Shown here: positions 494 through 61,507 of the stretch, in pieces | Layout: every line of letters begins with the position of its first letter | Position numbering within the stretch: position 1 is the first letter of the stretch | From: Hydrocarboniphaga sp. | Lineage (GTDB): Bacteria; Pseudomonadota; Gammaproteobacteria; Nevskiales; Nevskiaceae | NCBI RefSeq assembly: GCF_965279055.1 | Contig: NZ_OZ257125.1 | Coordinates: 4,271,322-4,335,321, forward strand | Direction of reading: 5' to 3' | Length of the DNA stretch: 64,000 bases | Position numbers and translations under genes: made by a program | The notes under the pieces: model-generated | Told to the model about the DNA's origin: nothing | What the model saw: the letters and a program-made list of their open reading frames with translations, nothing else | Databases searched by the model: none

Positions 494-509
494 TCAACAG
501 TAGTGATTA
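494..509. promoter_or_regulatory. Candidate operator, near match to RACA-N4-TGTY
   Basis: tcAACAgtagTGATta, 1 mismatch, intergenic upstream of the Rieske gene. Confidence 0.4.
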
Positions 510-545
510 CTAAGACCGCAGCCGGGAACGGCCGCGAACAACGGC

Positions 546-959
546 CTAAGTCGACGGCGTCAGCACCAGCCGGGGAATCGTGTTGTGCAGACCGACCGGC
601 GAATCGTGCTCGTCGACCAGGCACACCGGGTTGCTGTTGGACGCGAACAGCCGGCGCTCGTCGGCGAGGCGCGCCTGCAGCATTTCCGGATTGGCCAGGC
701 CCTTCATCGCCGCGTCGAAATCGGCGCGGCTGTTCCACCATATTTCCATCACGCAGTCGTAGCCCGGATCGATCACTTCGCCGGTCAGCGGGTTCGGCAC
801 CGGCGTCAGGTAGCGGCGCACATAGCGCTGCGCGTTCGGCAGCGCCGGCTTGGCGCCCAGGCGCCGGCTCAGCTGCGTGTGCTGGGTTTCGTAGTAGTCC
901 ATGAACTGCTCGCGGCTCATGTCGGCGCGCTTTTTCAGAAATACGATCTGCTTGAGCAT
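546..959 (-). CDS. EthD-family dimeric alpha/beta-barrel protein
   Basis: MLKQIVFLKKRADMSREQFMDYYETQH...YDCVMEIWW, EthD-like pattern; AAGGAG RBS before ATG 959. Confidence 0.8.
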   Translation of the reverse strand: MLKQIVFLKKRADMSREQFMDYYETQHTQLSRRLGAKPALPNAQRYVRRYLTPVPNPLTGEVIDPGYDCVMEIWWNSRADFDAAMKGLANPEMLQARLADERRLFASNSNPVCLVDEHDSPVGLHNTIPRLVLTPST

Positions 960-969
960 GGCCCGCTCC

Positions 970-2568
970 TTACGCCGGGCGCAGCGCCAGCACGCTGCCT
1001 TCCGCGTCGGCCGAGAAATACAGCCGGCCATCGGCGCCGGCAGTGATACCGGCGAACGGTCCCATCGGCCCGGACATGGTGCCGATCGCGCCGAGGAACT
1101 TCGGCGTCACGCCCGGCGGCGCACCGACCGGCAATTGCGAGGCGATCACGCGGCTGCGGCCGCTGGCCGGATCGCATTCGAGAACCTGTTTGGCGCCGGC
1201 ATCGACGATGTACAAACGCCCGCCGGACAGCGCCAGCCCCTGTGGCTGCTGCAGGCCGTCGAGTACGGTTTCGGCGCGGCCGCCGACCAGCTTGACCACG
1301 CGGCCGCCGGCGGATTCGGCAACGTAGACCACCGCATCGGCCGACACCGCGACGCCGGACGGCAGCTTCAGGCCGGTCGCGAGCGTCTCGACATTGCCAC
1401 CCTGCAGCGACACCACGCGGCCGCTGCCCTGCTCGACCGCAATCACCGCGCCGCGCGGCGCGATCGCGACGCCATAGAGCTGGTCGAAACCGCCGGCGAT
1501 GATCTCGCTGCGCTGCTGCGCGGGCCAGTAGCGCGCGACGTCGCCGTTGGCGGTGGTGATGACGAATTCGCCGGCCGCGGCCGCGGCGACGCCACGCGAA
1601 TAGCCCGGATAGCCCGGCGTGAACAGCATGCCGACCAGCTCGCGGGGCTGGCCCGGGCGCAGCGTGTACGAGAACGGCCCGTCGGCGACGTACATCAGCC
1701 CGTCGCTATCCATGGCCAGACCCAGCGGCCAGCTGAAGCCGTCGGGCACCAGGTCCCGGGTCTTGCCGTCGCCGAGAATTTCGGTGACGTAGCCGGAAAT
1801 GTTGGAGACGAACATCCGCGTGCCGACGAAGGTGACGTTGTCCAGGCCCGGCGTCAGCTGCGCGAGCACGGTCTTGTCGCCGCTGCGCGGGTCGATGCGC
1901 AGCACCTGGCCGCTGTGCACCTGCGTCGAGACGATGAAACCCCGGGCATCGAACTTGACCGAATCCGGCACGCCCAGGTCTTTGGCCACCACCTCCGGTG
2001 CGCCGCTGCCGTCGAGGCTGATGCGCCAGATTTCGTTGGTGCCCATCACCGGGAAGTAGAGCTTGCCATCGGGCCCGACGTCGAATGCGTTCGGCATCGG
2101 CACGTTGTCGAGCAGCAGCCGCGGCGCTCCGCCGTCCAGATCCAGCTGCATGATGCGGCCGCCGACCCGGCACTCGCCGGCGATCAGCTGGCCGTTGTGA
2201 AACGTGATCGGATTGGCCACCGGCATGTCGCCGTAGACCACGCGCGTATGGCCGTTGGGCTCGCGCACGCTGACGCGGCCCTCGGTGATTTCGGTCGCAT
2301 ACAGATTGCCGGCGGGATCGAACACCAGATCGTCCGGCGCGACGATGTCGCCGCCCTTGGGGCTGATCGCCTCGATCGCGCCGGTGTCGACATCGATCGC
2401 GCTGATCTGGCTGCCGGAAACCTGGGCGACGTAGATGCGGCCATCAGGACCGGTGCGCAGGCCGTTGGCGCCGAACAGCCGGCTCGGCGCGGTCATCCGC
2501 TCCAGCGTCCAGCCGGCGGCGGAGAGATAAGTCGTCGTCGTCGTAAAACGCCCGCTTTGCTGCGCCAT
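970..2568 (-). CDS. SMP-30/gluconolactonase/NHL-like beta-propeller protein, probably two propellers
   Basis: Repeated blades (ANGLRTGPDGRIYV, PDDLVFDPAGNLY, PNAFDVGPDGKLY, PLGLAMDSDGLMYV, PSGVAVSADAVVYV, PQGLALSGGRLY); start set at ATG 2568 with GAGGAG RBS. Confidence 0.75.
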   Translation of the reverse strand: MAQQSGRFTTTTTYLSAAGWTLERMTAPSRLFGANGLRTGPDGRIYVAQVSGSQISAIDVDTGAIEAISPKGGDIVAPDDLVFDPAGNLYATEITEGRVSVREPNGHTRVVYGDMPVANPITFHNGQLIAGECRVGGRIMQLDLDGGAPRLLLDNVPMPNAFDVGPDGKLYFPVMGTNEIWRISLDGSGAPEVVAKDLGVPDSVKFDARGFIVSTQVHSGQVLRIDPRSGDKTVLAQLTPGLDNVTFVGTRMFVSNISGYVTEILGDGKTRDLVPDGFSWPLGLAMDSDGLMYVADGPFSYTLRPGQPRELVGMLFTPGYPGYSRGVAAAAAGEFVITTANGDVARYWPAQQRSEIIAGGFDQLYGVAIAPRGAVIAVEQGSGRVVSLQGGNVETLATGLKLPSGVAVSADAVVYVAESAGGRVVKLVGGRAETVLDGLQQPQGLALSGGRLYIVDAGAKQVLECDPASGRSRVIASQLPVGAPPGVTPKFLGAIGTMSGPMGPFAGITAGADGRLYFSADAEGSVLALRPA

Positions 2569-2669
2569 CTGCCGCTCTCCTCGATCCGCCGTGTGCATCC
2601 TGTCGTGGTCTTGTGGCCGGGCCCGCCGGCTGTCGCCGGCTTGAGCGCATTCCATTTATGCCTCGATCA

Positions 2670-2685
2670 TCAACATGGTTGTCCA
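2670..2685. promoter_or_regulatory. Candidate operator RACA-N4-TGTY
   Basis: tcAACAtggtTGTCca, exact match upstream of the propeller gene; its reverse complement is 14/16 identical to the 35372 site. Confidence 0.6.
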
Positions 2686-2814: not shown

Positions 2815-3600
2815 TCATTTTTTCATGCTGCCGGCCATCGCCATCAGCGCCTGAGGCCGTGGCATCGCCAGCAATTGTTCGAAGCTCGCCCGGTAGTGCT
2901 CGCTGGGCAGATACACCGGGCCGTTGTCCAGGTTCTGCAGCGCCAGCGCAGCGACTTCGCCGGGCGACATCAGGTTGCGCAAGGTCGCCGGATCGATGCC
3001 CTGCAGCCGCGGCGCCTCGGTGTCGGTGGCGCCGGGGCACAGCGTCAGCACGCTGATGCCTTCGGGCGTCAGCTCGGCCCACAAGCCTTCGCCGAGGCTG
3101 TTGACGAAGGCCTTGGTCGCCGCATACGTGGTCGAGTAGGGACAGCCGATCAGGCCTTCCACCGAGCTGGTGAACAGCAGGCCGCCACGGCCGCGCTGGC
3201 GTAGCCGCGGCACGAAGGCGCGTGCGAGCAGCAGCGGCGTATGGCAGTTGACCATCAGCATCTCGGACAGCTGCGCCGCGTCGCCGCTGTCGAACGCGCC
3301 CTTGAAGCCGAAACCGGCGTTGCTGACCAGCAGGCCGATGTCGAGCGCGGCGCAGGCATCGGCAATGCGGCTCACCGCGTCGGGCGCGGACAGGTCGGCC
3401 TCGCAGACGCTGACTTCGACGCCGTATTCGGACGCCAGGCGCGTCGCCAATTCATCCAGGCGCTGGCGCCGGCGTGCGACCACGACCAGATCCATGCCCT
3501 TTTCCGCCAGCTGCTGCGCGAACGCGGCGCCGATGCCGGAAGAGGCGCCGGTGACCAGCGCCACCGGGCCGTAGCGTCCGACGAAGGCCGCGTCGCTCAT
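2815..3600 (-). CDS. Short-chain dehydrogenase/reductase
   Basis: TGASSGIG, NAG, YAATK; start set at ATG 3600. Confidence 0.9.
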   Translation of the reverse strand: MSDAAFVGRYGPVALVTGASSGIGAAFAQQLAEKGMDLVVVARRRQRLDELATRLASEYGVEVSVCEADLSAPDAVSRIADACAALDIGLLVSNAGFGFKGAFDSGDAAQLSEMLMVNCHTPLLLARAFVPRLRQRGRGGLLFTSSVEGLIGCPYSTTYAATKAFVNSLGEGLWAELTPEGISVLTLCPGATDTEAPRLQGIDPATLRNLMSPGEVAALALQNLDNGPVYLPSEHYRASFEQLLAMPRPQALMAMAGSMKK

Positions 3601-3664
3601 CGAGTTGACTCCATCGCTTAGTGGGCGACATCCGGTTGGAGCCGCCGCAATCCATGAGCTTGGC

Positions 3665-3680
3665 GCAGCACGCGTGTTGC
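3665..3680. promoter_or_regulatory. Candidate operator, near match
   Basis: gcAGCAcgcgTGTTgc in the divergent SDR/thioesterase intergenic region. Confidence 0.3.
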
Positions 3681-3819
3681 GCCAAGCACGGATGACGTCG
3701 ACAGCCGGCCACAATGACGATACGCGGTCTCGCATCGCACCACGGCGCGATGCCGGCACACGATGGTGCTAGGCTGCCGTCGGCCAGCCGCGCGCCCTCA
3801 ACAGGAACCCGCCACACCC

Positions 3820-4248
3820 ATGAGAATCGACCGCAGGCGGCTGCAGCGCCCGGGCTTTGTGTTTGCCTGCGAGATCCAGACGCGCTTTGCCGACGTGGAC
3901 AAGATCGGCCACGTCAACAACGTCGCGATCGCGTCGATTTTCCAGGAAGGCCGCAATCGCTTCATCCACGCCAGCGGCATCTACCCTCTGGCGCAATGCG
4001 ATCTGGTGGTGGCCAGCGCCAGCTTCGAGTACGCCGGCGACCTGTTCCATCCCGAGCCGATCGAGATTGCGGTCGGCGTCATCGAGATCGGACGCAGCTC
4101 GTTGCGCATCGGCCAGATCGCCTGCCAGCACGGCCGCATCGGCGCCTACGCCGAGGTGGTGCAGGTGGCGCGCGACGCCAACGGCGCCATCGCGTTGCCG
4201 CAGGCCTGGCGCGCACCGCTCGAGGCGCAGAAGATCATCGTGGCCTGA
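3820..4248 (+). CDS. Acyl-CoA thioesterase (4HBT/hot-dog fold)
   Basis: TRFADVDKIGHVNNVAIASIFQEGR motif; start ATG 3820. Confidence 0.85.
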   Translation: MRIDRRRLQRPGFVFACEIQTRFADVDKIGHVNNVAIASIFQEGRNRFIHASGIYPLAQCDLVVASASFEYAGDLFHPEPIEIAVGVIEIGRSSLRIGQIACQHGRIGAYAEVVQVARDANGAIALPQAWRAPLEAQKIIVA

Positions 4249-4266
4249 GACGCGGAGCGAACCGGC

Positions 4267-5154
4267 GTGAGCGAGGAAACCGGCAACCGCATCATCGATC
4301 TGATCAATTTCTTCGCCGCGCATCCGACCGAGGCGTTCACCTTGTCGGACGTGGTCGAACATCTGCCGATCAGCCTCGGCTCCGCGCACCGCGCGCTGAA
4401 GGCGCTGACCGACGCGCGCTACCTGTCGCGACATCCCAGGCACAAGACCTATTCGCTGGGGCTGACCCTGGTCGCGATCGGCCAGGCCGCGCTGGAACGG
4501 CACCCGGCGGTCAGCCTGGCCCGCGAGGAAATGTCGCGGCTGACCGCGGAGCTCGGCCTGCAATGCGTGGCCACCACGCGCGTCGACGACGAGCTGGTGT
4601 CGCTGGTCAAAACCGGCGTACCGCCGGGCGATCACGGCATTCGCCGCGCCGGCGAGCGCCGGCCTTTCATCCCGCCTCTGGGCCTGGGCCATGTCGCCTG
4701 GGCCGGTGCAGAGACAACCGCTGCGTATCTCGCCCGCGGCGCCGCGCGGCCCGATCATCCGACGCACGGCTTCCTGCTCAAATCACTGGAGGTGATACGC
4801 CAGCGCGGCTATGCGATGGCCGCCAACGGCCCGGCCGTGCGCTCGGTGTGGCAGGCGATCTGGGATCAGGCGGCCCGTCTGCGCGACGAGCGCTACTGGG
4901 AACAGATGCGTCGCCTGCTCGCAGGCCTGTCCCGCGACGAGCTGCAGCTGCTGACGCTGGACCAGCCCGGCGCGATCCGGCTGGCCTATATCTCGGCGCC
5001 GGTGTTTTCGCCTGGCGGCGAGGTGCTGCTGTCGATTTCGATGTCGGGCTTCGCCGAGGAGCTCGATGCGGATACGGTGTCGCGGCATGTCGAGCGTCTT
5101 TGCGCGGCAGCAGCGACGGTCACGCAGCAAATTCACGGACAGCTGCCACGCTAA
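4267..5154 (+). CDS. IclR-family transcriptional regulator
   Basis: N-terminal HTH (FTLSDVVEHLPISLGSAHRALKAL...YSLG), C-terminal IRQRGYA and ISAPVF effector domain. Confidence 0.85.
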   Translation: MSEETGNRIIDLINFFAAHPTEAFTLSDVVEHLPISLGSAHRALKALTDARYLSRHPRHKTYSLGLTLVAIGQAALERHPAVSLAREEMSRLTAELGLQCVATTRVDDELVSLVKTGVPPGDHGIRRAGERRPFIPPLGLGHVAWAGAETTAAYLARGAARPDHPTHGFLLKSLEVIRQRGYAMAANGPAVRSVWQAIWDQAARLRDERYWEQMRRLLAGLSRDELQLLTLDQPGAIRLAYISAPVFSPGGEVLLSISMSGFAEELDADTVSRHVERLCAAAATVTQQIHGQLPR

Positions 5155-5284: not shown

Positions 5285-6409
5285 ATGAAGGTGCAGCCCG
5301 CCGCGTTTTTTCGCACGACCCTGCCGCTGGATCTGTCGCGGCTGGCGGACCTGGACAGCGGCCGCTACCACTCGATCTGGCTGCCGGACCACATGGTCAG
5401 CTTCTGGCCGGACGCGATCTGGACGCCGGAGTTCACCGATCTGGCAAGCGCCTCGCCGTCACCGCACCGCCATCTCGACGGCATGGCGGTGGCTGCCGCC
5501 GCCGCGGTGCTGACGCAGCGCGTGCCGATCGCCACCAGTGTTGTCGATACCGTGCGCCGCCATCCTTCGCTGCTGGCGCAGAGCGCGCTGACCATCAGCC
5601 ATTTGTCCCAGGGCCGCTTCGTGCTCGGCCTGGGCAGCGGCGAAACCGAGAACACCGTGCCGTACGGCTTCGACTTCGCCAAGTCGGTGAGCCGCTTCGA
5701 GGAATCGCTGAAAGTCATCAGGCTGCTATGGGAAAGCGATGGCCCGGTCGACTTCGAAGGCCAGTTCTACCAGCTGCATCACGCGCGCCTCGACACCGAA
5801 CCCTATCAAGGCAAAAACCCGCCGATCTGGATCGGCGCCAGCGGCCCGCGCATGCTCGATATCACCGGACGCTACGCCGACGGCTGGTGGCCGGCGGGCG
5901 CCTGGTCGCCGCAGGATTACGCGGACAAGCTCGCGGTGGTGCGCGGTGCCGCCGACAAGGCCGGCCGCGATCCGATGGCGATCGTGCCGGCCTTCATCCA
6001 GATCTGCCTGATCGGCGACGACGCGGAACTGGCGACGATCCTGCAGCAGCCACTGGTGCAGTCGCTGGTGATGCAGATACCGGCGGATCTGCTCAAGGCG
6101 CGCGGCTACCGGCATCCGCTCGGCGAGAGCTGGCGCGGCTACCAGGACATCGACCCCGGCGTGCTGACGCGCGAGCGGATCCTCGACATGCTCGCGAAGT
6201 TCGAAGCCGAGGCGCTGCTGGCCGTGATCCCGCACGGCTCGCCACAAAAGATCGCGCAGATCGTCAAAAGCTACTGCGACGCCGGCCTGCGAGTGCCGAA
6301 GATTCTCGACTACGGCGGCATGGCCGGCCTGAAATACGCCGCCTCATCGGCGCAGAAAGTACGTGAAGCCGAAGACGAACTCTTGATGCTCGCCGGAGAC
6401 CTGAAGTGA
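5285..6409 (+). CDS. Luciferase-like (LLM) flavin/deazaflavin oxidoreductase, Rv2951c-like
   Basis: WLPDH, VDTVRRHP, LGLGSGE...PYG, GPRMLDITGRYADGW, AGRDPMAI, HPLGESWRGYQDIDP. Confidence 0.8.
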   Translation: MKVQPAAFFRTTLPLDLSRLADLDSGRYHSIWLPDHMVSFWPDAIWTPEFTDLASASPSPHRHLDGMAVAAAAAVLTQRVPIATSVVDTVRRHPSLLAQSALTISHLSQGRFVLGLGSGETENTVPYGFDFAKSVSRFEESLKVIRLLWESDGPVDFEGQFYQLHHARLDTEPYQGKNPPIWIGASGPRMLDITGRYADGWWPAGAWSPQDYADKLAVVRGAADKAGRDPMAIVPAFIQICLIGDDAELATILQQPLVQSLVMQIPADLLKARGYRHPLGESWRGYQDIDPGVLTRERILDMLAKFEAEALLAVIPHGSPQKIAQIVKSYCDAGLRVPKILDYGGMAGLKYAASSAQKVREAEDELLMLAGDLK

Positions 6410-7575
6410 GCGCCCCCAAGCTCGAAGCCGACGCGCTGCTCGCCGCTGCGCAGAATGAAACCGGCCTGGCCGACTACGGCGACGACGCCAGCTTCAGGAC
6501 GCGCTTCGGTCTCGCCGTCGATCACATCAACAGCATCGGCATGGACGAAGCCGGCCAGCGGGCCGCCGCTGCCGCCTGCCACTGGCTGCTGGTTTCACGG
6601 CTGCAACTGGTCGGAGACCGCGAGCGCTATCCGATCGCCGACGAGCAGATCGTCAGGCCGCTGTTCGCGACCGGCCAGCCGCGCTCCGGCACGACCTTGT
6701 TGCACGCGCTGATGTCGGTCGATCCGAACGCACGCTCGCTGCGCTTCTGGGAGACGATGTATCCGTCGCCGCCACCGGGACTCAGCGATGGCGGCGACGA
6801 TCAGCGCCGCGGACGCGCCGACGCCGACTGGCGCGAGATCAACGCCAAGATTCCGAAGTGGCTGCTCAGCCATCCGTACAACGACATGCTCGGCGACGGC
6901 CTGCCCGAGGACGAGCGCACCTGGGCGCTGGACTTCCGGGTGATGACGCCGACCGCCTGGTGGCGCGTGCCGATGGGCATGAAGATCGGCGGCCTGCCGC
7001 TGGATCCGCGCGCGCAGTACGCGATCCACAAGATGATGCTGCAGCAGTTCCAGTACGCGCGGCCCGGGAAATACTGGGTGCTGAAAGGCTTTCACGGCGC
7101 GCGGCTGGAGGCGCTGTTCGAGACCTATCCGGACGCGAGCCTGATCTGGACGCACCGCGATCCGGTACAGGTGATCGCCTCGCGCATCATGATGGCCGCC
7201 GAGCTGGTCGAGGGCATGATCGGCCATGTCGATCTGCAGCAGCAGGCCGCGATCCAGCTCGCCGATGCGCGCGCCAGCATGGCCGCGATGATGCAGGCGC
7301 CGATGCTGGGCGATCCGCGCATCCAGCACGTGCGCTACACCGATTTCACCGCCGACCCGGTCGGCACGATACGGCGCTTCTACGAGCATAGCGGCGTGGC
7401 CTGGACCGCCGAAGCCGAAGCGGCGATGCGCCATTATCTGGCGAACAATCGCGGCGACCGCTATGGCAAGTTCACCTATTCTCCGGACGTGATCGGCGTG
7501 GATATCGAGCAGCTGCACCGCGAATTCGCGCCGTTTCGCAAGCGTTTCGGCATCGAGATCGAGCAGCGGAAGTAG
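6406..7575 (+). CDS. PAPS-dependent sulfotransferase (mycobacterial Stf-like)
   Basis: 5'-PSB loop GQPRSGTTLLH and 3'-PB HRDP..VIAS; GTGA overlap with the upstream LLM gene. Confidence 0.85.
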   Translation: MSAPKLEADALLAAAQNETGLADYGDDASFRTRFGLAVDHINSIGMDEAGQRAAAAACHWLLVSRLQLVGDRERYPIADEQIVRPLFATGQPRSGTTLLHALMSVDPNARSLRFWETMYPSPPPGLSDGGDDQRRGRADADWREINAKIPKWLLSHPYNDMLGDGLPEDERTWALDFRVMTPTAWWRVPMGMKIGGLPLDPRAQYAIHKMMLQQFQYARPGKYWVLKGFHGARLEALFETYPDASLIWTHRDPVQVIASRIMMAAELVEGMIGHVDLQQQAAIQLADARASMAAMMQAPMLGDPRIQHVRYTDFTADPVGTIRRFYEHSGVAWTAEAEAAMRHYLANNRGDRYGKFTYSPDVIGVDIEQLHREFAPFRKRFGIEIEQRK

Positions 7576-10978: not shown

Positions 10979-11030
10979 CGTTCCTCTATCCGGCAGCACG
11001 GTCGCGTGCCTGGCTATCGTAAAACCATAA

Positions 11031-11046
11031 TCAACAGTACTGTGCG
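11031..11046. promoter_or_regulatory. Candidate operator, near match
   Basis: tcAACAgtacTGTGcg (core ACAGTACTGT is palindromic) between the divergent MDR and SDR genes. Confidence 0.5.
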
Positions 11047-11074
11047 ATTCATGGAAAAGGAACGAGGAGCTCAC

Positions 11075-14337: not shown

Positions 14338-14429
14338 CGGTGTTGTCCAACCCGGTCTGGTTATTAGAATTTCTGTACAGCCTGCGGCGGTCGGTACAGG
14401 ATATGCCGCGCTGTCGGGATCATAATATG

Positions 14430-14445
14430 TCAACAGCGTTGTTCA
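14430..14445. promoter_or_regulatory. Candidate operator RACA-N4-TGTY
   Basis: tcAACAgcgtTGTTca between the divergent ACAD and enoyl-CoA hydratase genes. Confidence 0.65.
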
Positions 14446-15535: not shown

Positions 15536-15551
15536 GCAACACTGCTGTTTC
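15536..15551. promoter_or_regulatory. Candidate operator RACA-N4-TGTY
   Basis: gcAACActgcTGTTtc upstream of mmsA. Confidence 0.55.
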
Positions 15552-15607: not shown

Positions 15608-17122
<1,515 letters not shown>

Positions 17123-19671: not shown

Positions 19672-19687
19672 TCAACAGTGTAGTTCA
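19672..19687. promoter_or_regulatory. Candidate operator, near match
   Basis: tcAACAgtgtAGTTca in the gap upstream of the fused E1. Confidence 0.45.
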
Positions 19688-21575: not shown

Positions 21576-21591
21576 TAGACAGCGCTGTTCA
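21576..21591. promoter_or_regulatory. Candidate operator RACA-N4-TGTY
   Basis: taGACAgcgcTGTTca in the divergent CMD/MFS region. Confidence 0.6.
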
Positions 21592-21711: not shown

Positions 21712-21727
21712 CCAACACTATTGTTGA
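21712..21727. promoter_or_regulatory. Candidate operator RACA-N4-TGTY
   Basis: ccAACActatTGTTga upstream of the MFS gene. Confidence 0.6.
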
Positions 21728-30330: not shown

Positions 30331-30346
30331 GCAACAGCGGTGTTCA
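30331..30346. promoter_or_regulatory. Candidate operator RACA-N4-TGTY
   Basis: gcAACAgcggTGTTca upstream of the CoA-transferase. Confidence 0.6.
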
Positions 30347-33581: not shown

Positions 33582-33650
33582 CGGCGGGCGCGACCCGCCC
33601 TACAAAAGCGGATGGCATCACACGGCGGGTCACGCCCCGCCGGCTTTTTG
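33582..33650. terminator. Paired GC hairpins, possible terminators between convergent genes
   Basis: GGCGGG..CCCGCC followed by ACAAAAG, and CGGCGGG..CCCGCCG followed by CTTTTT. Confidence 0.45.
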
Positions 33651-35261
33651 CGGCCCATGAAACCGCGGCCGTTGTGCCAGCCGTTTCGCCACCTCCGGAT
33701 AACGCTCCGGACGCAGGTTGCCGTACATCGAGATGCGCAGCGACTCCTCGGCGAAACGCCGCGCCAGCGGCGCCAGATCCTGAGTCGCACCGTATTGCGC
33801 GCGCGCCCACACCGGCCACAGGAACACACCGGCGAGCGTAATCACCGACAACACTTCGGTATCGACGTTGTCCTGCGACAGCGCGGTGGAATCGAAGCGC
33901 TCCGCCGAGCTGCGGTATTCACGCCAGAACAGATCGCGTGCCGGCTCCGGCGACGACAGCACATTCAGCAGCCAGGCGCGGCACAGCTCCGGGTTGTCCA
34001 TCGCGAAACCGGCGAGCCGGTCGCTCAAGGCCGCGACGTCGACCGAGCCGACCTTGCGGTCCTTGGTGGCGCCGGCGGGCCCGAACACCGCCTGAAACAG
34101 TTTCTCCGATACGCCGACCGCGGCCGCCGCGATCAGCTGGTCGCGCGTCTTGAAGTGCTGGTATGCAGTGCCGCGATTGACGCCGGCAATGCGCGCCACC
34201 TCGGCCAGGCTCAGGCCTTCGGGGCCGTCGTGCGCCAGGCAGCGTCGCGCCGCCTGCAGGATCGCTTCCCGCGTGCTCGCGGGGTCCGGCGAACGGCGCG
34301 GCTTGCGCGCTGACGCGGCGCGTTTCCGCACCGGCCGCGACCCTGGTGATGAGTCCCGCAATCTGATGGCACGACTCGCACTCGTACGCGAGGGCCGCAG
34401 CAGCGACTGCTGCGGCGTCGCACCGCCGAGCAGCTCCAGCTCACAACTCGAGTTGTAGGCCGACAGCAGCGCGGCGAGCTGTCGCTGCAGCTGCGCCAGC
34501 GACACGGAGCCGCGCCCGTCCACGGCCGCGGCGGCGATGGTCCGGTTCATGCGCTCGACCTGCGCGCCGGTCCAGCGCTGGCGCAGCTTCAGGCCGCGCT
34601 GGCGGATACCCGCGTCGGCGCAGGCCGGTGCAAACGAGGCATCGGCGGCGATTGTCTCGTCGGCCATCAGGCTACCGATGCGGCCCGGCACCGCGGCGAT
34701 CAGCGCGGCGACGAATTCGACCGCCGACGCCGCAGCGCCGGCGTCGTATAGCTGCGCAAATGCGTAACGGCTGCGCCGCTCGACCGCGACGATCAGCTGG
34801 TAGCGGCGTTTTTCGCCGAGTTGCGCGCTGCTCAGGTCGAAGCACAGCCCTTCGGCAGACCCGGCCGCAGCCTCGTCGCCGCTCGCGGGCAGACGCGAAA
34901 TGCCGTGCCGCTGCAGGCAGCGGTGCAGCGATGAACGGCTCAGCTGCGGAATGAAGCCACGCAGAGCCTGCAGACAGCCGTCGAGCGGCAGGCGCAGATG
35001 CTGGCGCAAGGCGACGACGATGCCCTCCTCGCGCAGGCTCAGGGCCGAGGAGCGCGGATCGCGCGGGCCCGGCTTGCGATCGTCCGGCGATGCACGGCGC
35101 CGCCATTTGGCGACGGTTTTCGGATTGAGCCCGTAACGCAGGGCCAGCTGGCGAATGCTGTCGTCACTGTGCCGGATCGCATGCCGTACTTCGGCGGGGC
35201 TACGCCGCAGCTGCTTCATCGATCGCACCCGATCAGGATTGGACAGGGTCTTTTGTACCAT
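33630..35261 (-). CDS. IS481-type transposase (HTH + RNase H/integrase core) fused in frame to a TetR-family regulator
   Basis: aa 1-290: RYGLNPKTVAKWRRR, GPRDPRSSALS, LPLDGCL..L...IPQLSRSSLHRCLQRHGISRLP, QVERMNRTI, AYN...L.G.TP (IS481 hallmarks). aa 319-543: TREAILQAA...GLSLAEVARIAGVNRGTAYQHFKTRDQL (TetR). One uninterrupted frame. Confidence 0.88.
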   Translation of the reverse strand: MVQKTLSNPDRVRSMKQLRRSPAEVRHAIRHSDDSIRQLALRYGLNPKTVAKWRRRASPDDRKPGPRDPRSSALSLREEGIVVALRQHLRLPLDGCLQALRGFIPQLSRSSLHRCLQRHGISRLPASGDEAAAGSAEGLCFDLSSAQLGEKRRYQLIVAVERRSRYAFAQLYDAGAAASAVEFVAALIAAVPGRIGSLMADETIAADASFAPACADAGIRQRGLKLRQRWTGAQVERMNRTIAAAAVDGRGSVSLAQLQRQLAALLSAYNSSCELELLGGATPQQSLLRPSRTSASRAIRLRDSSPGSRPVRKRAASARKPRRSPDPASTREAILQAARRCLAHDGPEGLSLAEVARIAGVNRGTAYQHFKTRDQLIAAAAVGVSEKLFQAVFGPAGATKDRKVGSVDVAALSDRLAGFAMDNPELCRAWLLNVLSSPEPARDLFWREYRSSAERFDSTALSQDNVDTEVLSVITLAGVFLWPVWARAQYGATQDLAPLARRFAEESLRISMYGNLRPERYPEVAKRLAQRPRFHGPQKAGGA

Positions 35262-35370: not shown

Positions 35371-35388
35371 ATGAACAACCATGTTCAT
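35371..35388. promoter_or_regulatory. Candidate operator, perfect 7-bp arms
   Basis: ATGAACA-acca-TGTTCAT between the divergent fusion gene and SDR. Confidence 0.7.
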
Positions 35389-37971: not shown

Positions 37972-37987
37972 TAGACAGACCTGTCGG
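37972..37987. promoter_or_regulatory. Candidate operator RACA-N4-TGTY
   Basis: taGACAgaccTGTCgg upstream of the KstD-like gene. Confidence 0.6.
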
Positions 37988-42773: not shown

Positions 42774-42849
42774 TCGACACTGTTGTTTATTGGAGCGCGC
42801 AGCCGGAGGCCGGATGCGCATTGCGCATTAATGAACACGCATGTACATT
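42774..42849. promoter_or_regulatory. Two candidate operators upstream of the 2Fe-2S ferredoxin
   Basis: tcGACActgtTGTTta (42774-42789, exact) and AATGAACA-cgca-TGTACATT (42830-42849, near match). Confidence 0.6.
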
Positions 42850-43333: not shown

Positions 43334-43349
43334 GCGCCGCCGCGTGGGC

Positions 43350-45205: not shown

Positions 45206-45802
45206 ATGAGCAGCCGAATCCCGCAGAAGCCGCGCAGCCGCAACCCGGTACAGACCCGTGCCCGGCTGCTGCAGGCGACGATCGACCTGGTCGCCGAAAA
45301 AGGCGCCGACGCGCTGTCGCTGAAAGAGGCCGCGCGCGTGGCCAAGGTCAGCCGCGGCGTCGCCTACCAGCATTTCGACGACCGCGATCACCTGCTGCGC
45401 GAGGCCAAGGCCTGGCTGTCGGAGCGCCTGAGCGAATCGCTGCATGGCGAACTCGACCCGGCGACGATGGAGGATCGCGTCTACGGCGTGGCGCGGCAGG
45501 TGATGAACAACCGCGAGGCCTCGCGACTGCTGATCGCCGACGCGATGGCCGGCAAGGATCTGCAGAAAGACCATCCGCTGTACCGCCTGCTGCTCGACTC
45601 GCTGGAGCGGTTCAGGACCAGTGGCAATGCGCGCCAGGACATGGATCTGGAAATCCTGTCCTCGATCCTGGTCGGAGTGGTCGCTTCTATCATCATGCTG
45701 AGTTATCAAGACAACAGTGATGTCGATAAGATGGCGCGGCGGTTTACTGCCGAATGGACTCGCATCCTTCGCCACGGGATTTTCGTGGAGCCTCCGGCCT
45801 GA
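45206..45802 (+). CDS. TetR-family regulator
   Basis: TRARLLQATIDL...LSLKEAARVAKVSRGVAYQHF; ATG 45206. Confidence 0.9.
   Translation: MSSRIPQKPRSRNPVQTRARLLQATIDLVAEKGADALSLKEAARVAKVSRGVAYQHFDDRDHLLREAKAWLSERLSESLHGELDPATMEDRVYGVARQVMNNREASRLLIADAMAGKDLQKDHPLYRLLLDSLERFRTSGNARQDMDLEILSSILVGVVASIIMLSYQDNSDVDKMARRFTAEWTRILRHGIFVEPPA
45711..45726. promoter_or_regulatory. Candidate operator inside the 3' end of tetR
   Basis: acAACAgtgaTGTCga, exact match, in an AT-rich coding stretch. Confidence 0.45.
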
Positions 45803-45845: not shown

Positions 45846-45877
45846 ATCGCTAATGGACACTGATGTCCATTAGCGAT
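45846..45877. promoter_or_regulatory. Perfect 14-bp inverted repeat centred on the operator motif
   Basis: ATCGCTAATGGACA-ctga-TGTCCATTAGCGAT; no U-tract, so an operator is favoured over a terminator. Confidence 0.65.
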
Positions 45878-53900: not shown

Positions 53901-55169
53901 CTAGAACGGCAGCTTGTACAGCTCCGCCGCGTTGCGCTCGAGCACACGCTTCTTCACTTCGTGGCTATAGCCGCCGAGCGTGTCGACGATATGCGCCTGC
54001 ACGCCCGGATACAGCGAGGTCGGGTGCGGGAAGTCGGTTTCGAACAGCACCTTGTCGACGCCGATGGTTTCCAGCAGCAGCTTCGGCGCGACTTTCTCGA
54101 ACCAGTACGTGACCCAGAAGTGATCCTTGAAATATTCCCAGGGACGGCGCTTGGCGATGTTGCGCTTGGCGCCCATCATTTCGTCGAACTGGTGTTCGAG
54201 CGCTTCCAGCGCGAACGGAATCCAGCCCATGCCGCTTTCGATCAGGCCGATCTTCAGCTTCGGGTGGCGATCGAGACGGCCGCTGACGATCCAGTTGCCG
54301 AGCGTCGCGGCGTTGCAGATCGAGAACATCGTCGCGACCACCGACAAGGTCTGCTCGAACGCAAAGCCCTTCCAGGTCAGCGCGGTCGGATCGATGGCGA
54401 CGTTCAGATGGAAGTTGATCGGCAGCGCCTCGTGCTCGCACAGTTCCAGGAACGAGGTCCAGTGATCCTCGATCAGCGACGGCAGGCCCATGCGCTCGGG
54501 CGTATCCGGCACGACGAAGCCTTTCAGCCCGATGTCGGCGCAGCGGCGCGCTTCGGCGTCCATCGCCTTCTTGTCCCAGATCGGCAGATGCGCCAGGGTG
54601 AACAGGCGCTGCCCGCTTTCCTGCTGACGCTCGGCGGCGGCGTCGTTGTAGGCCTTGATGATCGCCAGCGCCAGTTCCGGATCGCCGAGCGCCATCAGCG
54701 AACCCGGCTGGGTCACGCCGGAGTTCTGGAAGCATATCTGCGCGTAGACGCCCATGTCGTCCATCGCCTGCAGGCGCGCCTTGGTGTCGTGCGCGCCGGC
54801 ATGGCCTTCGTCTATGGTCTGGAACGCGAGACGGCCGAGCAGCTTGTTGTTGTCGGCGCGGATCACGTTGCCGCCGAGCGTGCCGAAATCGCGCTCGCCG
54901 ACGAACCAGCGGTCGACGCCCTTGACGCGCTTCACATGCGGCATGCGGCCTTTCAGCGCGGCCGGCGCCTGCTTGATGAACAGGTCCGGCGCTTCGGTGA
55001 CATGCGTGTCGCAGTCGACGATCTTGATGCCTTTCAGGCTCGGGTCCAGACCCGCGGACTGGGACGCGTAGTCCACTTCGCGAATCATTCCACCGGCCGT
55101 ATAACCCTCGGCCGACCAGTATTTGCGCGCCTGGTTTGCAAGCTCGTCTGCGCGGTTGTCGTCGCTCAT
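53901..55169 (-). CDS. Amidohydrolase_2 family protein (decarboxylase/hydratase-like)
   Basis: DCDTHV, INFH, ESGMGW, FETDFPH. Confidence 0.85.
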   Translation of the reverse strand: MSDDNRADELANQARKYWSAEGYTAGGMIREVDYASQSAGLDPSLKGIKIVDCDTHVTEAPDLFIKQAPAALKGRMPHVKRVKGVDRWFVGERDFGTLGGNVIRADNNKLLGRLAFQTIDEGHAGAHDTKARLQAMDDMGVYAQICFQNSGVTQPGSLMALGDPELALAIIKAYNDAAAERQQESGQRLFTLAHLPIWDKKAMDAEARRCADIGLKGFVVPDTPERMGLPSLIEDHWTSFLELCEHEALPINFHLNVAIDPTALTWKGFAFEQTLSVVATMFSICNAATLGNWIVSGRLDRHPKLKIGLIESGMGWIPFALEALEHQFDEMMGAKRNIAKRRPWEYFKDHFWVTYWFEKVAPKLLLETIGVDKVLFETDFPHPTSLYPGVQAHIVDTLGGYSHEVKKRVLERNAAELYKLPF

Positions 55170-55254: not shown

Positions 55255-56568
55255 TCAGGCGGCCTTGGCGTGATGCGAGAACATGCGCATCAGATCGCCG
55301 CTGGTGATCGCGCGCGGCGCCTCGCCTTCTGCCAGCGGCGAGGCGCCACCGGAAGACTTGGGCGTGACGTCGACGCCGGCCGCCAGCGCGGCGGCGCGCA
55401 GCGCGCCGACGCTGAGTTGTTCACGCGGGATGTGCTTGAACATGTCGAAGCGGAAAAAGCGCATCGCATTGCCGTGCGTGATCTTGGCGATGCGTTCGGC
55501 GCTCAGGTGCTGGATGGTTTCCCACAGCCGCTCCGGCACGTTCGGCCACAGCGAATCCGAATGCGGGTAATCGCATTCGTAGGAGACCATGTCCTCGTTG
55601 AGGAAATCCAGGTTCTTCAGGCCGAACTCGTCGTCGATGAAGCAGTTCAGGAAATGCTTGCGGAACACCTCGCTGGGCTTGGTGCCCTTGAACCCGGAAT
55701 GGGTCCAGGCCTTGTGGCGCTCATGGCTGAAGTTGGCGCGTTCCAGAAAGTAAGGGATCCAGCCGATGCCGCCTTCCGACAGCGCGATCTTCATCGTCGG
55801 ATAGCGCTCCAGCGCGGCCAGGTTCAGCCAGTCGGCGGCGCCGGTCGAGATCGACATCGGCATCGTCGTGATCCAGGCTTCGATCGGCGTTTCCATCGAC
55901 GCATGCGGCGCCGGGTTGCCGGCGCCGATGTGCAGGCAGATCGCGATGTCCAGATCGGTGACGATCTTCCACAGCGGTTCCCAATAGGCGTTGTGGATGC
56001 TCGGCAGGCCCTGCGTGGTCGGATTCTCGTTGATCGAAATCGTCGTGCAGCCCTTGGCGGCGATGCGCTTGATTTCCTCGACGGTGGCCTTGATGTCCCA
56101 GGTCGGCACGATGCCGCAGGGAATGAAGCGGCCCGGATAGGCGCCGCACCATTCGTCGATATGCCAGTCGTTGTAGGCGCGCATGTGGATCAGCGCCTTG
56201 GCCTTGTCCGCGGCCTTGTGAAAGCGGCCGCCGTCGAAGCCGACGCAGGAGCCGAAGTTAAGCGAGGCGGCGATGCCGTTGACGTTCATGTCGTCGATGC
56301 GCGCGTGCACGTCGTAGGTGCCCTTGCGCAGCTGCTCCATCGCGGTCGGTTCCATGCCGTACTCGTCCAGCGGACGGCCGACCACGGCGTTCAGGCCCAC
56401 CGACGGCATTTTCATGCCCTGGTATTCCCAGTAGTTGGTGCCGTTGTCGCTGGTCATCAGCTTCGGTGCGCTGGCCAGGTCGTCGCCCGACAGATGCTTG
56501 TCGAACATGCCCGGCGGCTCGCTGATGTGATCATCGACACTGATGATCACCAGGTCATTCATATTCAT
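55255..56568 (-). CDS. Amidohydrolase_2 family protein (paralogue)
   Basis: SVDDHI, AYNDWH, CLHIG, EGGIGW, YECDYPHSDS. Confidence 0.85.
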   Translation of the reverse strand: MNMNDLVIISVDDHISEPPGMFDKHLSGDDLASAPKLMTSDNGTNYWEYQGMKMPSVGLNAVVGRPLDEYGMEPTAMEQLRKGTYDVHARIDDMNVNGIAASLNFGSCVGFDGGRFHKAADKAKALIHMRAYNDWHIDEWCGAYPGRFIPCGIVPTWDIKATVEEIKRIAAKGCTTISINENPTTQGLPSIHNAYWEPLWKIVTDLDIAICLHIGAGNPAPHASMETPIEAWITTMPMSISTGAADWLNLAALERYPTMKIALSEGGIGWIPYFLERANFSHERHKAWTHSGFKGTKPSEVFRKHFLNCFIDDEFGLKNLDFLNEDMVSYECDYPHSDSLWPNVPERLWETIQHLSAERIAKITHGNAMRFFRFDMFKHIPREQLSVGALRAAALAAGVDVTPKSSGGASPLAEGEAPRAITSGDLMRMFSHHAKAA

Positions 56569-57342: not shown

Positions 57343-57352
57343 CAGAAAATCC

Positions 57353-58938: not shown

Positions 58939-58940
58939 TG

Positions 58941-60194: not shown

Positions 60195-60241
60195 CTTGAA
60201 AACTCTCCAGCTTTTGTTTGGCGCGCTTGCATGTTGGTGGA

Positions 60242-61054
60242 TCAGCCGCCCATCAGCGAGCGGATGTCGATCTGGCCGGTGGCCAGGCCGGCCATGAAAC
60301 CGCCGTCGACATAGAAGCACAGGCCGTTGACGTAGGTCGCTGCATCGCTGTTGAGGAAAGCCAGCGGACCGGCCTGCTCCTCGGGCGTCGAGCGGCGGTT
60401 GATCGGCTGCGCCGCGGCCTCCAGCACCGAGGCCTTACTGGCCGATTCGAAGTGCGCCATCATCGGCGTCTGCGTCGGGCCGGGCATCGTGCAGTTGATG
60501 CGGATGCCCTTCTTGATCAGGCTCTGCGACATCAGCATGGTCCAGGCGATGACCAGTTCCTTGGAGAACGAATAGCCTTCGCGCACCGTGTCCGGATTCT
60601 CTTCGCACCATTTCATGAACGCGTCGAAGCCCTGGATGCCGATCGCCTGCATCAGCACCGGAATGCGCCGGCTCCAGCCGAGGCCGCCGTTGCTGGAGAT
60701 GCTGGCGATGGCGCCGCCGGAAGACATCAGCGGCAGCATCTTCTCGGTCAGGTGACGCGTGCCGGCGAAATTGACTTTCATCACGTCCAGCGCCGGGAAG
60801 GTTTGCGGCAGGCCGGCGCAGTTGAACAGCGCATCGACCTTGCCGCCGATTTTCGCCACCGCGGCGTCGATCGACGCCGGGTCACGCAGGTCGACGTTGT
60901 TGAACGAGGCCAGGCTCAGCTGGGTCTGCTTGTAGTCCAGGCCGTGCACTTCGGCGCCCAACGACAGCAGCAGCTTGGCCGTGGCCTCGCCCATGCCGGA
61001 GAAACAGCCGCTGACGACGACCCGCTTGCCCTTATATCCGAGAAACTCGCTCAT
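60242..61054 (-). CDS. SDR, coniferyl-alcohol-dehydrogenase/3alpha-HSD-like
   Basis: SGCFSGMG, FNCAGL, YSFSK, PGPTQTPM. Confidence 0.82.
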   Translation of the reverse strand: MSEFLGYKGKRVVVSGCFSGMGEATAKLLLSLGAEVHGLDYKQTQLSLASFNNVDLRDPASIDAAVAKIGGKVDALFNCAGLPQTFPALDVMKVNFAGTRHLTEKMLPLMSSGGAIASISSNGGLGWSRRIPVLMQAIGIQGFDAFMKWCEENPDTVREGYSFSKELVIAWTMLMSQSLIKKGIRINCTMPGPTQTPMMAHFESASKASVLEAAAQPINRRSTPEEQAGPLAFLNSDAATYVNGLCFYVDGGFMAGLATGQIDIRSLMGG

Positions 61055-61129
61055 CTGGCGCTCCTGCCTTCGCTAAGGTTTTTTTAGATCAATTTTTGTG
61101 ACGCCGGACGGCCGGGGCCGCCATGCCGC

Positions 61130-61324
61130 CTATTCTTCTTCGATGAAGATGATGCGTTCCGGGCAGGCGCGCGCGCCGCGCTTGGCGAGCTGCTCCTGGC
61201 CTTCGGGCACGTCGACATGATCGACCGCGATGTAGCCGTCGTCGTTCAATGGAAACAGCGCTTCCGACACGTGCGCACAACGCGCGTTGCCGACGCAGGC
61301 TGCTTTCTCGATGCGGATCTTCAT
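61130..61324 (-). CDS. [3Fe-4S]-type ferredoxin
   Basis: 64 aa, CVGNARC...CPERII. Confidence 0.88.
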   Translation of the reverse strand: MKIRIEKAACVGNARCAHVSEALFPLNDDGYIAVDHVDVPEGQEQLAKRGARACPERIIFIEEE

Positions 61325-61491
61325 GGTTCTTCCTCCTGACGCTGTTTGAGTTTTCGCGTCTGATTTTGTCGTCGGGCAACAGGCCGGTCCAGCGGTGACG
61401 GACTGCCTCCACGGCGGCGGACGCGGGGCCTGTCGTCGGCTACATTGTATTTGCTGAGCCTGCTAAGTGAATGTATCCTAGAATCGCTGTA

Positions 61492-61507
61492 CCAACAACA
61501 GTGTCGA
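61492..61507. promoter_or_regulatory. Candidate operator RACA-N4-TGTY
   Basis: ccAACAacagTGTCga in the divergent region; shares 14 bp with the reverse complement of the 42774 site. Confidence 0.65.

Follow-up and report, generated by a model that had tools for sequence, protein, structure and literature searches.

Organization of the locus and predicted operator sites

The window, i.e. the whole 64-kb stretch of Hydrocarboniphaga sp. DNA analysed here, encodes two TetR-family proteins. TetR1 (33630..35261, minus strand) is a 543-aa ORF whose N-terminal part (aa ~30-285) is IS481-like. Its TetR part spans aa ~320-543 and comprises a TetR-type HTH (Pfam PF00440; aa 334-380, 1.2e-12) with the recognition helix VNRGTAYQHF. 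TetR2 (45206..45802, plus strand) is a stand-alone TetR protein of 198 aa (PF00440, 6.8e-9; recognition helix VSRGVAYQHF), which shares 38% identity with the TetR part of TetR1. A third paralogue, TetR3, is encoded 29 kb beyond the window end (genome positions 4364773-4365474, minus strand). In the PDB, its best matches belong without exception to the TetR family (from 1.2e-9), and it shares 49% identity with the C-terminal half of TetR1. The TetR HTH is present in all three paralogues, whose recognition helices differ very little.

A preliminary description of this DNA had listed twelve exact matches to the palindrome RACA-N4-TGTY, eleven of them intergenic, as well as seven near matches. All twelve exact matches were confirmed, and a 13th was found at 54999. 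Eleven of the twelve are indeed intergenic or overlap over-extended ORF starts, the exception being the match at 45713 in the 3' end of tetR2. Inspection of the flanks revealed a palindrome of 24 bp around the core, cTAATsRACAnnnnTGTYsATTAg (consensus cTAaTCAACAnnnnTGTTGAtTAg), with a 4-bp spacer in its centre. Scores refer to a PWM built from sites of the window itself, which makes PWM scores within the window circular, while the cross-genome tests reported below are independent of this circularity. Among the near matches, those at 496, 11033, 19674 and 42834 hold up as predicted operators and the one at 25930 does so weakly (PWM 13.9); 3667 (PWM -5.7) and 25871 (PWM 2.1) were rejected as sites. 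The similarities noted between distant copies are correct when one partner is read in reverse complement: 2670 and 35372 agree in 14 of 16 positions, and 42774 and 61492 share 14 bp.

At the left end of the window, a near match (AACAGTAGTGAT, 496..507, PWM 22.0) lies 5' of a minus-strand gene for a Rieske oxygenase alpha-subunit starting near 497, and a predicted operator (AACATGGTTGTC, 2672..2683, PWM 24.1) is located ~22 bp 5' of the gene for an SGL/NHL-repeat protein (970-2655, minus strand). A weaker candidate (AACAGTACTGTG, 11033..11044, PWM 16.9) is found at or just 5' of the start of a Zn-alcohol dehydrogenase gene (9953-11074, minus strand). The putative operator AACAGCGTTGTT (14432..14443, PWM 23.2) occupies the divergent promoter between genes for an acyl-CoA dehydrogenase (13201-14433, minus strand) and an enoyl-CoA hydratase (14562-15368, plus strand), followed by AACACTGCTGTT (15538..15549, PWM 25.6), predicted 65 bp 5' of a methylmalonate-semialdehyde-type aldehyde dehydrogenase gene (15608-17122, plus strand). 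The near match AACAGTGTAGTT (19674..19685, PWM 19.7) is a predicted operator at the head of a fused E1 2-oxoacid dehydrogenase gene (17549-19675, minus strand). Two further predicted operators, GACAGCGCTGTT (21578..21589, PWM 25.4) and AACACTATTGTT (21714..21725, PWM 24.6), are positioned 58 bp 5' of a CMD-family gene (20860-21525, minus strand) and 70 bp 5' of an MFS transporter gene (21789-23159, plus strand), respectively. A gene for a family III CoA-transferase (30383-31606, plus strand) is preceded at a distance of 45 bp by the candidate AACAGCGGTGTT (30333..30344, PWM 22.7).

The divergent promoter shared by tetR1 and an SDR gene (35456-36208, plus strand) contains the predicted operator AACAACCATGTT (35374..35385, PWM 23.1), which consists of perfect TGAACA/TGAACA half-sites. 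Further downstream, GACAGACCTGTC (37974..37985, PWM 18.1) is predicted 122 bp 5' of the gene for a KstD-like flavoprotein (38101-39798, plus strand), a protein reaching 669.6 bits against a model cut-off of 789. The putative operator GACACTGTTGTT (42776..42787, PWM 25.4) lies 5' of an AraC-family gene (41817-42680, minus strand) and shares its intergenic region with the near match AACACGCATGTA (42834..42845, PWM 22.0), likewise a predicted operator, which adjoins an ORF at 42841-43407 on the plus strand. Within the tetR2 3' end, the operator-like site AACAGTGATGTC (45713..45724, PWM 24.2) is kept in genomes G001 and G134, which coding constraint could account for. The genome's best site (PWM 28.8) is the perfect 14+4+14 palindrome ATCGCTAATGGACA-CTGA-TGTCCATTAGCGAT (45846..45877, core 45856-45867). 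It lies 54 nt past the tetR2 stop codon, 5' of an ORF at 45955 and of a TonB-dependent receptor gene (46330-48933, plus strand), and overlaps a predicted -35 element (TGGACA). The 13th exact match (GACATGCGTGTC, 54999..55010) resides in an amidohydrolase gene (53901-55169, minus strand) and probably arose by chance outside the regulon, since its extended PWM score is below 12. A weaker site (GACACTGATGAT, 56536..56547, PWM 17.6) is present at the 5' end of another amidohydrolase gene (55255-56568, minus strand), and the last predicted operator (AACAACAGTGTC, 61494..61505, PWM 19.1) separates a minus-strand SDR/P450/DUF35 unit from an SDR gene (61742-62512, plus strand). Predicted sigma-70 promoters overlapped only two operators, and promoter counts were not above chance.

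The motif is enriched in a catabolic island extending beyond the window

The pattern RACANNNNTGTY has 13 matches in the window, whereas 1.55 are expected and at most 5 were obtained in 100 dinucleotide shuffles. The genome-wide total is 118 matches, i.e. ~1.5 per 64 kb. The motif is concentrated in one region: 20 of the 118 matches fall inside 4.225-4.370 Mb, and the same 145 kb hold 11 of the 18 genome matches to AACANNNNTGTT. Enrichment over a composition-matched background was found as well. The 37 non-called segments of the window (10.4 kb) contain 11 matches, compared to a mean of 0.25 and a maximum of 3 in 2000 within-segment dinucleotide shuffles. When non-called DNA elsewhere in the genome served as background, 10 matches were counted against an expectation of 0.34 (Poisson P = 4e-12); gene calls were our own, GC3-based, and cover just 79% of the genome, so that 'non-coding' takes in some missed genes.

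With a PWM threshold of at least 17.5, the genome has 39 sites, 22 of which are within an island of ~132 kb (4.233-4.365 Mb), and nearly all are located 0-250 bp 5' of a called start. The predicted regulon extends beyond the one stretch: the island reaches past the window, and outlying sites exist at 0.65, 1.74 and 3.7 Mb. Genes at these sites encode acyl-CoA dehydrogenases, hydratases, CoA-transferases, CoA-ligases, SDRs and the KstD-like flavoprotein, in addition to Rieske, P450 and Baeyer-Villiger-type oxygenases and TonB/MFS transporters. Sulfotransferases are also among the island's catabolic genes.

The matches might be explained without regulation, as an artefact of AT-rich intergenic DNA, as copies of a REP/MITE-like repeat or as terminator hairpins. 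Such elements naturally reside in intergenic DNA, and the flanks of the core are AT-rich. However, the window's non-called DNA, at 64% GC, is not AT-rich, and the shuffles leave 0.25 matches where 11 are observed. Spacers and flanks vary among the copies, the stems are 4-10 bp long, AT-rich and without a T-run, and sites persist at orthologous promoters in other genera though the surrounding DNA diverges. Shuffles and promoter conservation effectively refute this explanation, to which we assign next to no probability.

Sites are conserved at orthologous promoters

Conservation upstream of target orthologues was observed in G001 and in G019, a genome of another genus. In G001, sites are kept 5' of the orthologues of the E1 gene (PWM 21.7 for the gene-head site), the CMD/MFS pair, the CoA-transferase, the SDR, the KstD-like flavoprotein and the AraC gene. 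In G019, they are kept 5' of the aldehyde dehydrogenase gene (PWM 25.1), the CoA-transferase gene and the SDR operon. Orthologues of the KstD-like flavoprotein at loci L152-L154 have upstream sites, too. In an alignment of the CoA-transferase upstream regions from our genome, G001 and G019, the palindrome is the sole conserved block besides the Shine-Dalgarno sequence. Judged by comparative genomics, the palindrome appears to behave like an operator of the TetR type that marks a catabolic island under common regulation, in keeping with the preliminary description.

Candidate cognate repressors

To identify palindromes without bias, all combinations of a 4-mer, a spacer of N0-10 and the reverse complement were counted in the 400 bp 5' of TetR3 orthologues from genomes other than ours (n = 68). 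AACA-N4-TGTT ranked first with 19 loci, and the next-ranked CAAC-N6-GTTG and TCAA-N8-TTGA are registers of the same palindrome. It occurs at 19/64 loci between -440 and -40 and at 12/66 loci just 3' of the gene, compared to only 0-3 loci in eight other 400-bp windows, although these counts are inflated by redundancy because many loci come from related MAGs. Orthologues with the motif in their own upstream region are found in Nevskiaceae, Steroidobacteraceae and Polyangiales MAGs. Among 121 family genomes, the excess of AACANNNNTGTT over a reversed control averages 12.5 in those possessing TetR3 and 1.8 in those lacking it (Mann-Whitney P = 1.4e-10), a statistic that ignores phylogeny and would be equal for any gene co-inherited with the island. 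In our genome, tetR3 is preceded by no more than a near match (PWM 16.6), and the strong site is found 3' of its stop codon. These comparative data support TetR3 as the best case for a cognate repressor.

TetR1 had been proposed as the cognate factor because of the site in its divergent promoter, and this remains credible, even though the best comparative case lies outside the window. The fusion has ~45 full-length homologues (39-73% identity) and forms a conserved family with an apparently inactivated transposase. A TGAACA-N4-TGTTCA-type site is present in the fusion/SDR divergent promoter at 6/6 loci, i.e. in our genome and at 5/5 orthologous loci, including those of Phenylobacterium and Sphingobium. 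At the five orthologous loci the site has the same position, and in three of them it is a perfect TGAACA/TGAACA. The Phenylobacterium fusion locus represents a minimal unit.

Alternatively, the palindrome could belong to a non-TetR regulator, with the TetR genes being mere targets. IclR-like (4267-5154), MarR (29109-29585) and AraC (41817-42680) genes all lie in the island; the AraC gene has two upstream sites, L152 and L153 show synteny between a MarR gene and the fusion locus, and a phyletic correlation does not separate genes inherited together. A regulator encoded elsewhere would also fit this scheme. However, the motif accompanies TetR3 orthologues in MAGs of Steroidobacteraceae and Polyangiales, and it accompanies the fusion in Phenylobacterium and Sphingobium, in each case amid differing neighbour genes. 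Genes for MarR, IclR or AraC proteins are absent beside the Phenylobacterium unit. Moreover, the half-site flavour varies along with the TetR clade, and AraC proteins usually read direct repeats. We therefore regard ownership by a non-TetR regulator as unlikely.

TetR2 had been named as the other potential cognate factor on the basis of the two sites at its 3' end. It could even be the sole master regulator of every site, as the genome's best site follows its stop codon, a second one is inside its 3' end, and the motif excess is larger in genomes with TetR2 and TetR3 (mean 15.0) than in those with TetR3 only (6.2). Against this, an upstream site was detected at 0/15 orthologous tetR2 loci. The TGGACA-type site 3' of the stop codon is kept only in close orthologues (at least 67% identity), the TGGACA flavour being retained there in 5 genomes, and orthologues with 49-55% identity are free of sites within 1.5 kb. 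TetR3-positive genomes without TetR2 still exceed TetR3-negative ones (P = 0.005) and have local clusters, e.g. on contig C24 of G015. Finally, TetR2 forms a distant clade (30% identity to TetR3) linked to the TGGACA variant only. The case for TetR2 as cognate factor via its 3' sites is weakened, and its role as sole master regulator is highly unlikely; the TGGACA-type site after the stop codon more probably belongs to the TonB receptor operon that follows.

Half-site flavours and a model for regulation

Half-site flavour co-varies with TetR clade: TCAACA accounts for 47/66 half-sites 5' of TetR3 orthologues, TGAACA for 10/12 beside fusions and TGGACA for 8/10 after TetR2, and the fusion and TetR2 clades separate in a quick tree. 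The flavours of TetR1 and TetR3 differ, yet their recognition helices are identical. Hybrid sites are numerous, e.g. TCAACA/TGAACA at 14432 and TCAACA/TGGACA at 2672. The island shares one operator, but the single regulon proposed previously is doubtful, as each paralogue has its own flavour at its neighbouring site and there may be as many as three regulons that overlap.

Our preferred interpretation, in which we have good confidence, is that the palindrome is an operator bound by dimers of related island-encoded TetR repressors, namely TetR3, TetR1 and possibly TetR2, which may act on the TGGACA variant. The predicted operators lie 0-250 bp 5' of ~20 operon heads and divergent promoters, plus a few outlying loci. 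In the absence of substrate, the repressors would sit on the operators and block the promoters, their own included. A pathway substrate or CoA-thioester intermediate would release them, switching the island on. Physical binding, repression rather than activation, and the identity of the ligand are what we infer.

A more elaborate version is a three-member network, in which TetR3 would read TCAACA, the fusion, taken as a conserved, catalytically dead IS481 transposase joined to the TetR domain, would read TGAACA, and TetR2 would read TGGACA. It is tentative and less likely than not. Hybrid sites would be read by several paralogues or by heterodimers, so that several ligands might be integrated at single promoters, and the extra HTH/transposase body of the fusion could provide another contact with DNA or link operators to each other.

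With dimers of related TetR repressors as the predicted readers, an undescribed TetR regulon is defined from sequence, comprising an operator consensus, ~40 candidate sites and three candidate repressors. It appears common to Nevskiaceae, Steroidobacteraceae and other soil Proteobacteria and would connect many catabolic genes that lack annotation (for oxygenases, CoA enzymes, sulfotransferases and TonB/MFS transporters). The regulon may also serve as an experimental handle on the island's substrate, because the ligand that frees the repressor is expected to be the substrate itself or an intermediate. The regulon further places a conserved bacterial fusion of transposase and TetR in a functional setting, and this fusion is a rare candidate case of a transposase domesticated into a transcription factor.

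Comparison with known regulons

The island resembles the KstR/KstR2 systems of actinobacterial steroid catabolism in its apparently autoregulated TetR repressor, in the dozens of short AAC...GTT palindromes preceding most operons of a >100-kb lipid/steroid-type island, in the wealth of acyl-CoA dehydrogenases, hydratases, SDRs, KstD-type and Rieske oxygenases, and in having more than one paralogous TetR per island. The KstR operator is TnnAACnnGTTnnA, with the spacing AAC-N2-GTT, whereas the spacing here is AAC-N6-GTT (TCAACA-N4-TGTTGA). In addition, the hosts here are Gammaproteobacteria and other Proteobacteria instead of actinobacteria, and one of the paralogues has an apparently inactivated transposase as fusion partner. 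Orthology to KstR was rejected: the NCBIfam KstR model NF033703 gives TetR2 26.6 bits compared to a cut-off of 280, and its search of TetR1 and TetR3 returned no match at 1e-5.

The PsrA motif is AAAC-N2-4-GTTT. Like the predicted repressors of the island, PsrA and FadP are TetR repressors of beta-oxidation-type genes, their regulons are largely defined by comparative genomics, and their palindromes are built on AAC/GTT. They differ from the island's TetRs in recognition helix and operator spacing, and they control core fad genes, whereas the regulon described here is a compact island that includes oxygenases, sulfotransferases and TonB receptors. Both are proteobacterial fatty-acid regulators with regulons from comparative genomics (PMC5343134).

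The island region also contains Rieske oxygenases, a P450, paired acyl-CoA dehydrogenases, and a DUF35 protein, after which comes a 420-aa ORF without Pfam/NCBIfam match.

Enrichment and extent of the palindromic motif

The presence of a recurrent RACA-N4-TGTY palindrome was confirmed. RACANNNNTGTY was found 13 times in the window versus 1.55 expected matches, and 100 shuffles yielded at most 5. All 12 exact matches of the preliminary description are among the 13; the extra one, at 54999, is intragenic, poorly matches the extended motif described below and probably reflects chance, and was dropped as a regulon site. It had been cautioned that intergenic DNA is AT-richer than the original estimate assumed, and the enrichment persisted when this was addressed: the 37 non-called segments of the window (10.4 kb, 64% GC) carry 11 motif matches, compared to a mean of 0.25 and a maximum of 3 in 2000 dinucleotide shuffles performed within segments. 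Non-called DNA in the remainder of the genome predicts 0.34 matches versus 10 seen in the window (P = 4e-12). Across the whole genome of the source strain (G000; 5.07 Mb, 65.5% GC, single contig) RACANNNNTGTY has 118 matches, which is approximately the chance rate, and 20 of these fall within 4.225-4.370 Mb. The same interval contains 11 of the 18 genomic matches to the stricter AACANNNNTGTT. The identities noted between distant sites (14/16 positions in one pair, 14 shared bp in another) proved correct when re-checked.

Alignment of the sites revealed a longer, 24-bp palindrome, cTAATsRACAnnnnTGTYsATTAg, with the 12-mer at its centre. Five of the seven near matches listed previously fit this extended motif; those at 3667 and 25871 do not and were discarded as sites. 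A 24-bp position weight matrix (PWM), whose scores inside the window are circular because the sites there served to train it, detected 51 sites scoring at least 16 in the genome, 27 of them between 4.2 and 4.4 Mb. Nearly all of the 39 sites with scores of at least 17.5 precede a called start by 0-250 bp, and many of them occupy divergent promoters. Strong sites span genome positions 4232893 to 4364699 (~132 kb), indicating that the putative regulon is larger than the window. Far from this main island, a second small cluster of four sites (three strong, one with a PWM score of 17.9) is present at G000:C1:650143-662202, i.e. at 0.650-0.662 Mb, where the sites precede an MFS_3 transporter, SDRs and a 3-beta-HSD-like epimerase. 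An SDR and a PQQ alcohol dehydrogenase are associated with further outlying sites at 1.7385 and 1.7649 Mb, and an SDR, a 2Fe-2S ferredoxin and an enoyl-CoA hydratase with those at 3.717 and 3.750 Mb.

Pairs of sites within one intergenic region, 58-143 bp apart, are frequent (21578/21714, 42776/42834, 45713/45856, 61494/61605), and such distances would suit independent regulation of divergent promoters as well as cooperative binding or looping. A scan for sigma-70 promoters showed overlap with only two sites (21578 and 45856), which is not above chance; the result is compatible with an operator role. The rejected near match 3667 turned out to be another perfect palindrome that is rich in GC, CTTGGCGCA-N10-TGCGCCAAG (3659-3686). 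It lies in the divergent region between an SDR gene (2815-3759, minus strand) and thioesterase and IclR-like genes (3763-5154, plus strand), and may serve the IclR-like regulator as its operator or form a hairpin.

TetR3 is the best-supported candidate regulator

Three paralogous TetR proteins were considered: TetR1, the C-terminal part of a 543-aa ORF encoding an IS481-transposase-like fusion (33630-35261, minus strand), TetR2 (45206-45802, plus strand) and TetR3 (234 aa; G000:4364773-4365474, minus strand), the latter encoded 29 kb past the window end. TetR1 and TetR3 share the recognition helix VNRGTAYQHF, which reads VSRGVAYQHF in TetR2, and pairwise identities are 49% for TetR1/TetR3, 38% for TetR2/TetR1 and 30% for TetR2/TetR3.

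The best-supported regulator, as judged by comparative genomics, would be TetR3, whose gene and that of a Rieske oxygenase are divergently oriented. In G000, a perfect TCAACA-N4-TGTTGA site is located 74 nt after its stop codon and only a near match upstream. We collected 68 TetR3 orthologue loci, partly redundant where they derive from MAGs, from taxa including Solimonas, Sinimarinibacterium, Nevskia, Steroidobacter, Peristeroidobacter, Povalibacter, Polyangiales MAGs, Pseudomaricurvus and Sphingomonas, and counted, independently of G000, every 4-mer followed by N0-10 and its reverse complement within 400 bp of upstream DNA. AACA-N4-TGTT ranked first (19 loci), and the next palindromes, CAAC-N6-GTTG and TCAA-N8-TTGA, are registers of the same palindrome. 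AACA-N4-TGTT was present at -440 to -40 in 19/64 loci and just after the gene in 12/66, versus 0-3 occurrences in eight control windows. The cross-species consensus of these sites is cTAaTCAACAnnnnTGTTGAtTAg.

Moreover, among 121 sampled genomes of the family the mean excess of AACANNNNTGTT over a reversed control was 12.5 in the 21 other genomes possessing TetR3 versus 1.8 in the 99 lacking it (P = 1.4e-10 in a Mann-Whitney test, which ignores phylogeny). Comparison of TetR3 with PDB and NCBIfam returned generic TetR matches only. Taken together, TetR3 has the broadest comparative support and, among the candidate regulators of the motif, the widest conservation. One genome of the same genus, G002, retains a mere TetR3 fragment (G002:C2:176367-176537; 72% identity over residues 9-65, open frame of 132 aa), and its AACANNNNTGTT excess is still 13 against 3; this may represent a decaying regulator with persisting operators.

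The transposase-TetR fusion is a credible further candidate, TetR2 the weakest

The fusion and TetR2 had been proposed as cognate factors. The fusion belongs to a family of ~45 full-length homologues (39-73% identity, at least 90% coverage), including annotated Phenylobacterium and Sphingobium proteins. In a quick version of the tree, the TetR halves of the fusions form one clade (SH-aLRT 96) beside stand-alone TetR3-like proteins, and the transposase half of the TetR1 ORF is single-copy in G000 with a coding-type GC3 of 0.82. Therefore, the length of the ORF is not a mere by-product of high GC content. Pfam missed the rve domain in the fusions and detected it in true IS481 relatives; alignment further showed that the first catalytic Asp, part of the HID motif of IS481, is replaced in 4/5 fusions and that the catalytic core lacks ~24 residues after the second Asp. 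By these features the fusion looks like a domesticated transposase. Met1 of TetR3 aligns with a GTG codon of the ORF (residue 311, position 34331), so that the TetR half may also be expressed on its own.

In all five fetched loci (L152-L156) the fusion gene is divergent from a gene for a 250-aa SDR, representing fixed synteny, and the intergenic region contains a site with a PWM score of 15.8-25.0. Three of these five sites are perfect TGAACA-N4-TGTTCA palindromes and two are one-sided, with GCAACA or ACAACA opposite TGAACA; the G000 fusion has a perfect TGAACA site at 35374. With a divergent site in five of five loci plus G000, the fusion stands as a credible cognate factor.

TetR2, in contrast, is the weakest candidate. 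Of the 121 genomes, 16 have a TetR2 orthologue, in each case together with TetR3, and an upstream site was found in 0/15 TetR2 loci. Four close orthologues (at least 67% identity) keep a TAAT(G/A)GACAnnnnTGTCCATTA site ~100 nt after the stop codon, and orthologues with 49-55% identity have no site within 1.5 kb. In G000, the site after TetR2 overlaps a predicted -35 element directed at the TonB receptor operon.

Half-site preferences and conservation of targets

Each paralogue is accompanied by its own half-site, which is conserved across genomes: 47/66 half-sites in front of TetR3 orthologues are TCAACA, while TGAACA accounts for 10/12 adjoining the fusions and TGGACA for 8/10 after TetR2. 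This renders the "single" regulon of the preliminary description doubtful. A clean split of the G000 sites into three half-site classes failed. TCAACA (18 half-sites), TGAACA (10) and TCGACA (7) were counted, and most sites are hybrids or other variants; thus, the paralogues may control the regulon jointly, instead of it belonging to a single one of them.

Sites also precede orthologous target genes elsewhere. In G001 of the same genus (75-91% protein identity), the orthologues of E1, CMD/MFS, CoA-transferase, SDR-35456, the KstD-like gene and AraC have upstream sites scoring at least 19, and G019, which represents another genus (60-78% identity), has sites with scores of 25-28 in front of its ALDH, CoA-transferase and SDR-operon orthologues. 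When the three CoA-transferase upstream regions are aligned, the palindrome is the sole conserved block besides the ribosome-binding site. The association across taxa and the co-variation of half-sites suggest that the palindrome behaves as a TetR operator, as proposed initially. Binding by a non-TetR factor, regulation by TetR2 alone, or an artefactual or repeat origin of the motif all fit these two lines of evidence less well. At the level of sequence comparison the initial interpretation is thus partly supported, namely in the assignment as TetR operator and in the fusion as a credible factor; the best-supported regulator lies outside the window.

Proposed mode of regulation

According to the TetR reading, dimers would sit on palindromes at or near promoters and repress ~20 transcription units plus the TetR genes themselves, and a pathway substrate or CoA-thioester would free them from the DNA. 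Such release by a ligand is the mechanism of KstR, KstR2, PaaR and TetR-type FadR. We speculate that the 24-bp width and the conserved TAAT flanks could hold two dimers. The system would work like the KstR-type regulons of actinobacterial lipid/steroid islands, but it is not a member of these: it fails the KstR model and its half-site spacing differs. A literature search covering the motif, Hydrocarboniphaga TetR proteins, Chol11 steroid clusters and domesticated transposase-TetR proteins returned no account of this operator or its regulator; the three-paralogue arrangement and the conserved fusion add to the interest of the regulon.

Gene content of the island

Calls based on GC3, Pfam and NCBIfam, which are incomplete, indicate that the window genes are almost all catabolic. 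They encode paired acyl-CoA dehydrogenases, an enoyl-CoA hydratase, a thiolase, a family III CoA-transferase and two CoA-ligases, many SDRs, a methylmalonate-semialdehyde-type aldehyde dehydrogenase, an E1/E2 2-oxoacid dehydrogenase, Rieske and luciferase-like oxygenases, a P450, two amidohydrolases, a DUF35 protein preceding a 420-aa ORF that matches no family, and a KstD-like flavoprotein, which at 669.6 bits stays under the cut-off of 789. One TonB-dependent receptor and MFS transporters as well as IclR-like, MarR, AraC and two TetR regulators are also present. The island flanks outside the window add a Baeyer-Villiger-type monooxygenase, two Rieske oxygenases, a fused double acyl-CoA dehydrogenase, a nitronate-monooxygenase-type enzyme, a MaoC-like hydratase and more TonB receptors. 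A steroid-like substrate might be read from this gene content and the sub-threshold KstD similarity. Finally, the island contains three sulfotransferase-family genes, two of them in the window, and an alkylsulfatase-like metallo-beta-lactamase, likewise in the window (6406-7575, 43839-45206 and 50999-52285 in the window; G000:4352473-4353624). These are unusual company for beta-oxidation genes and hint at a sulfated substrate.
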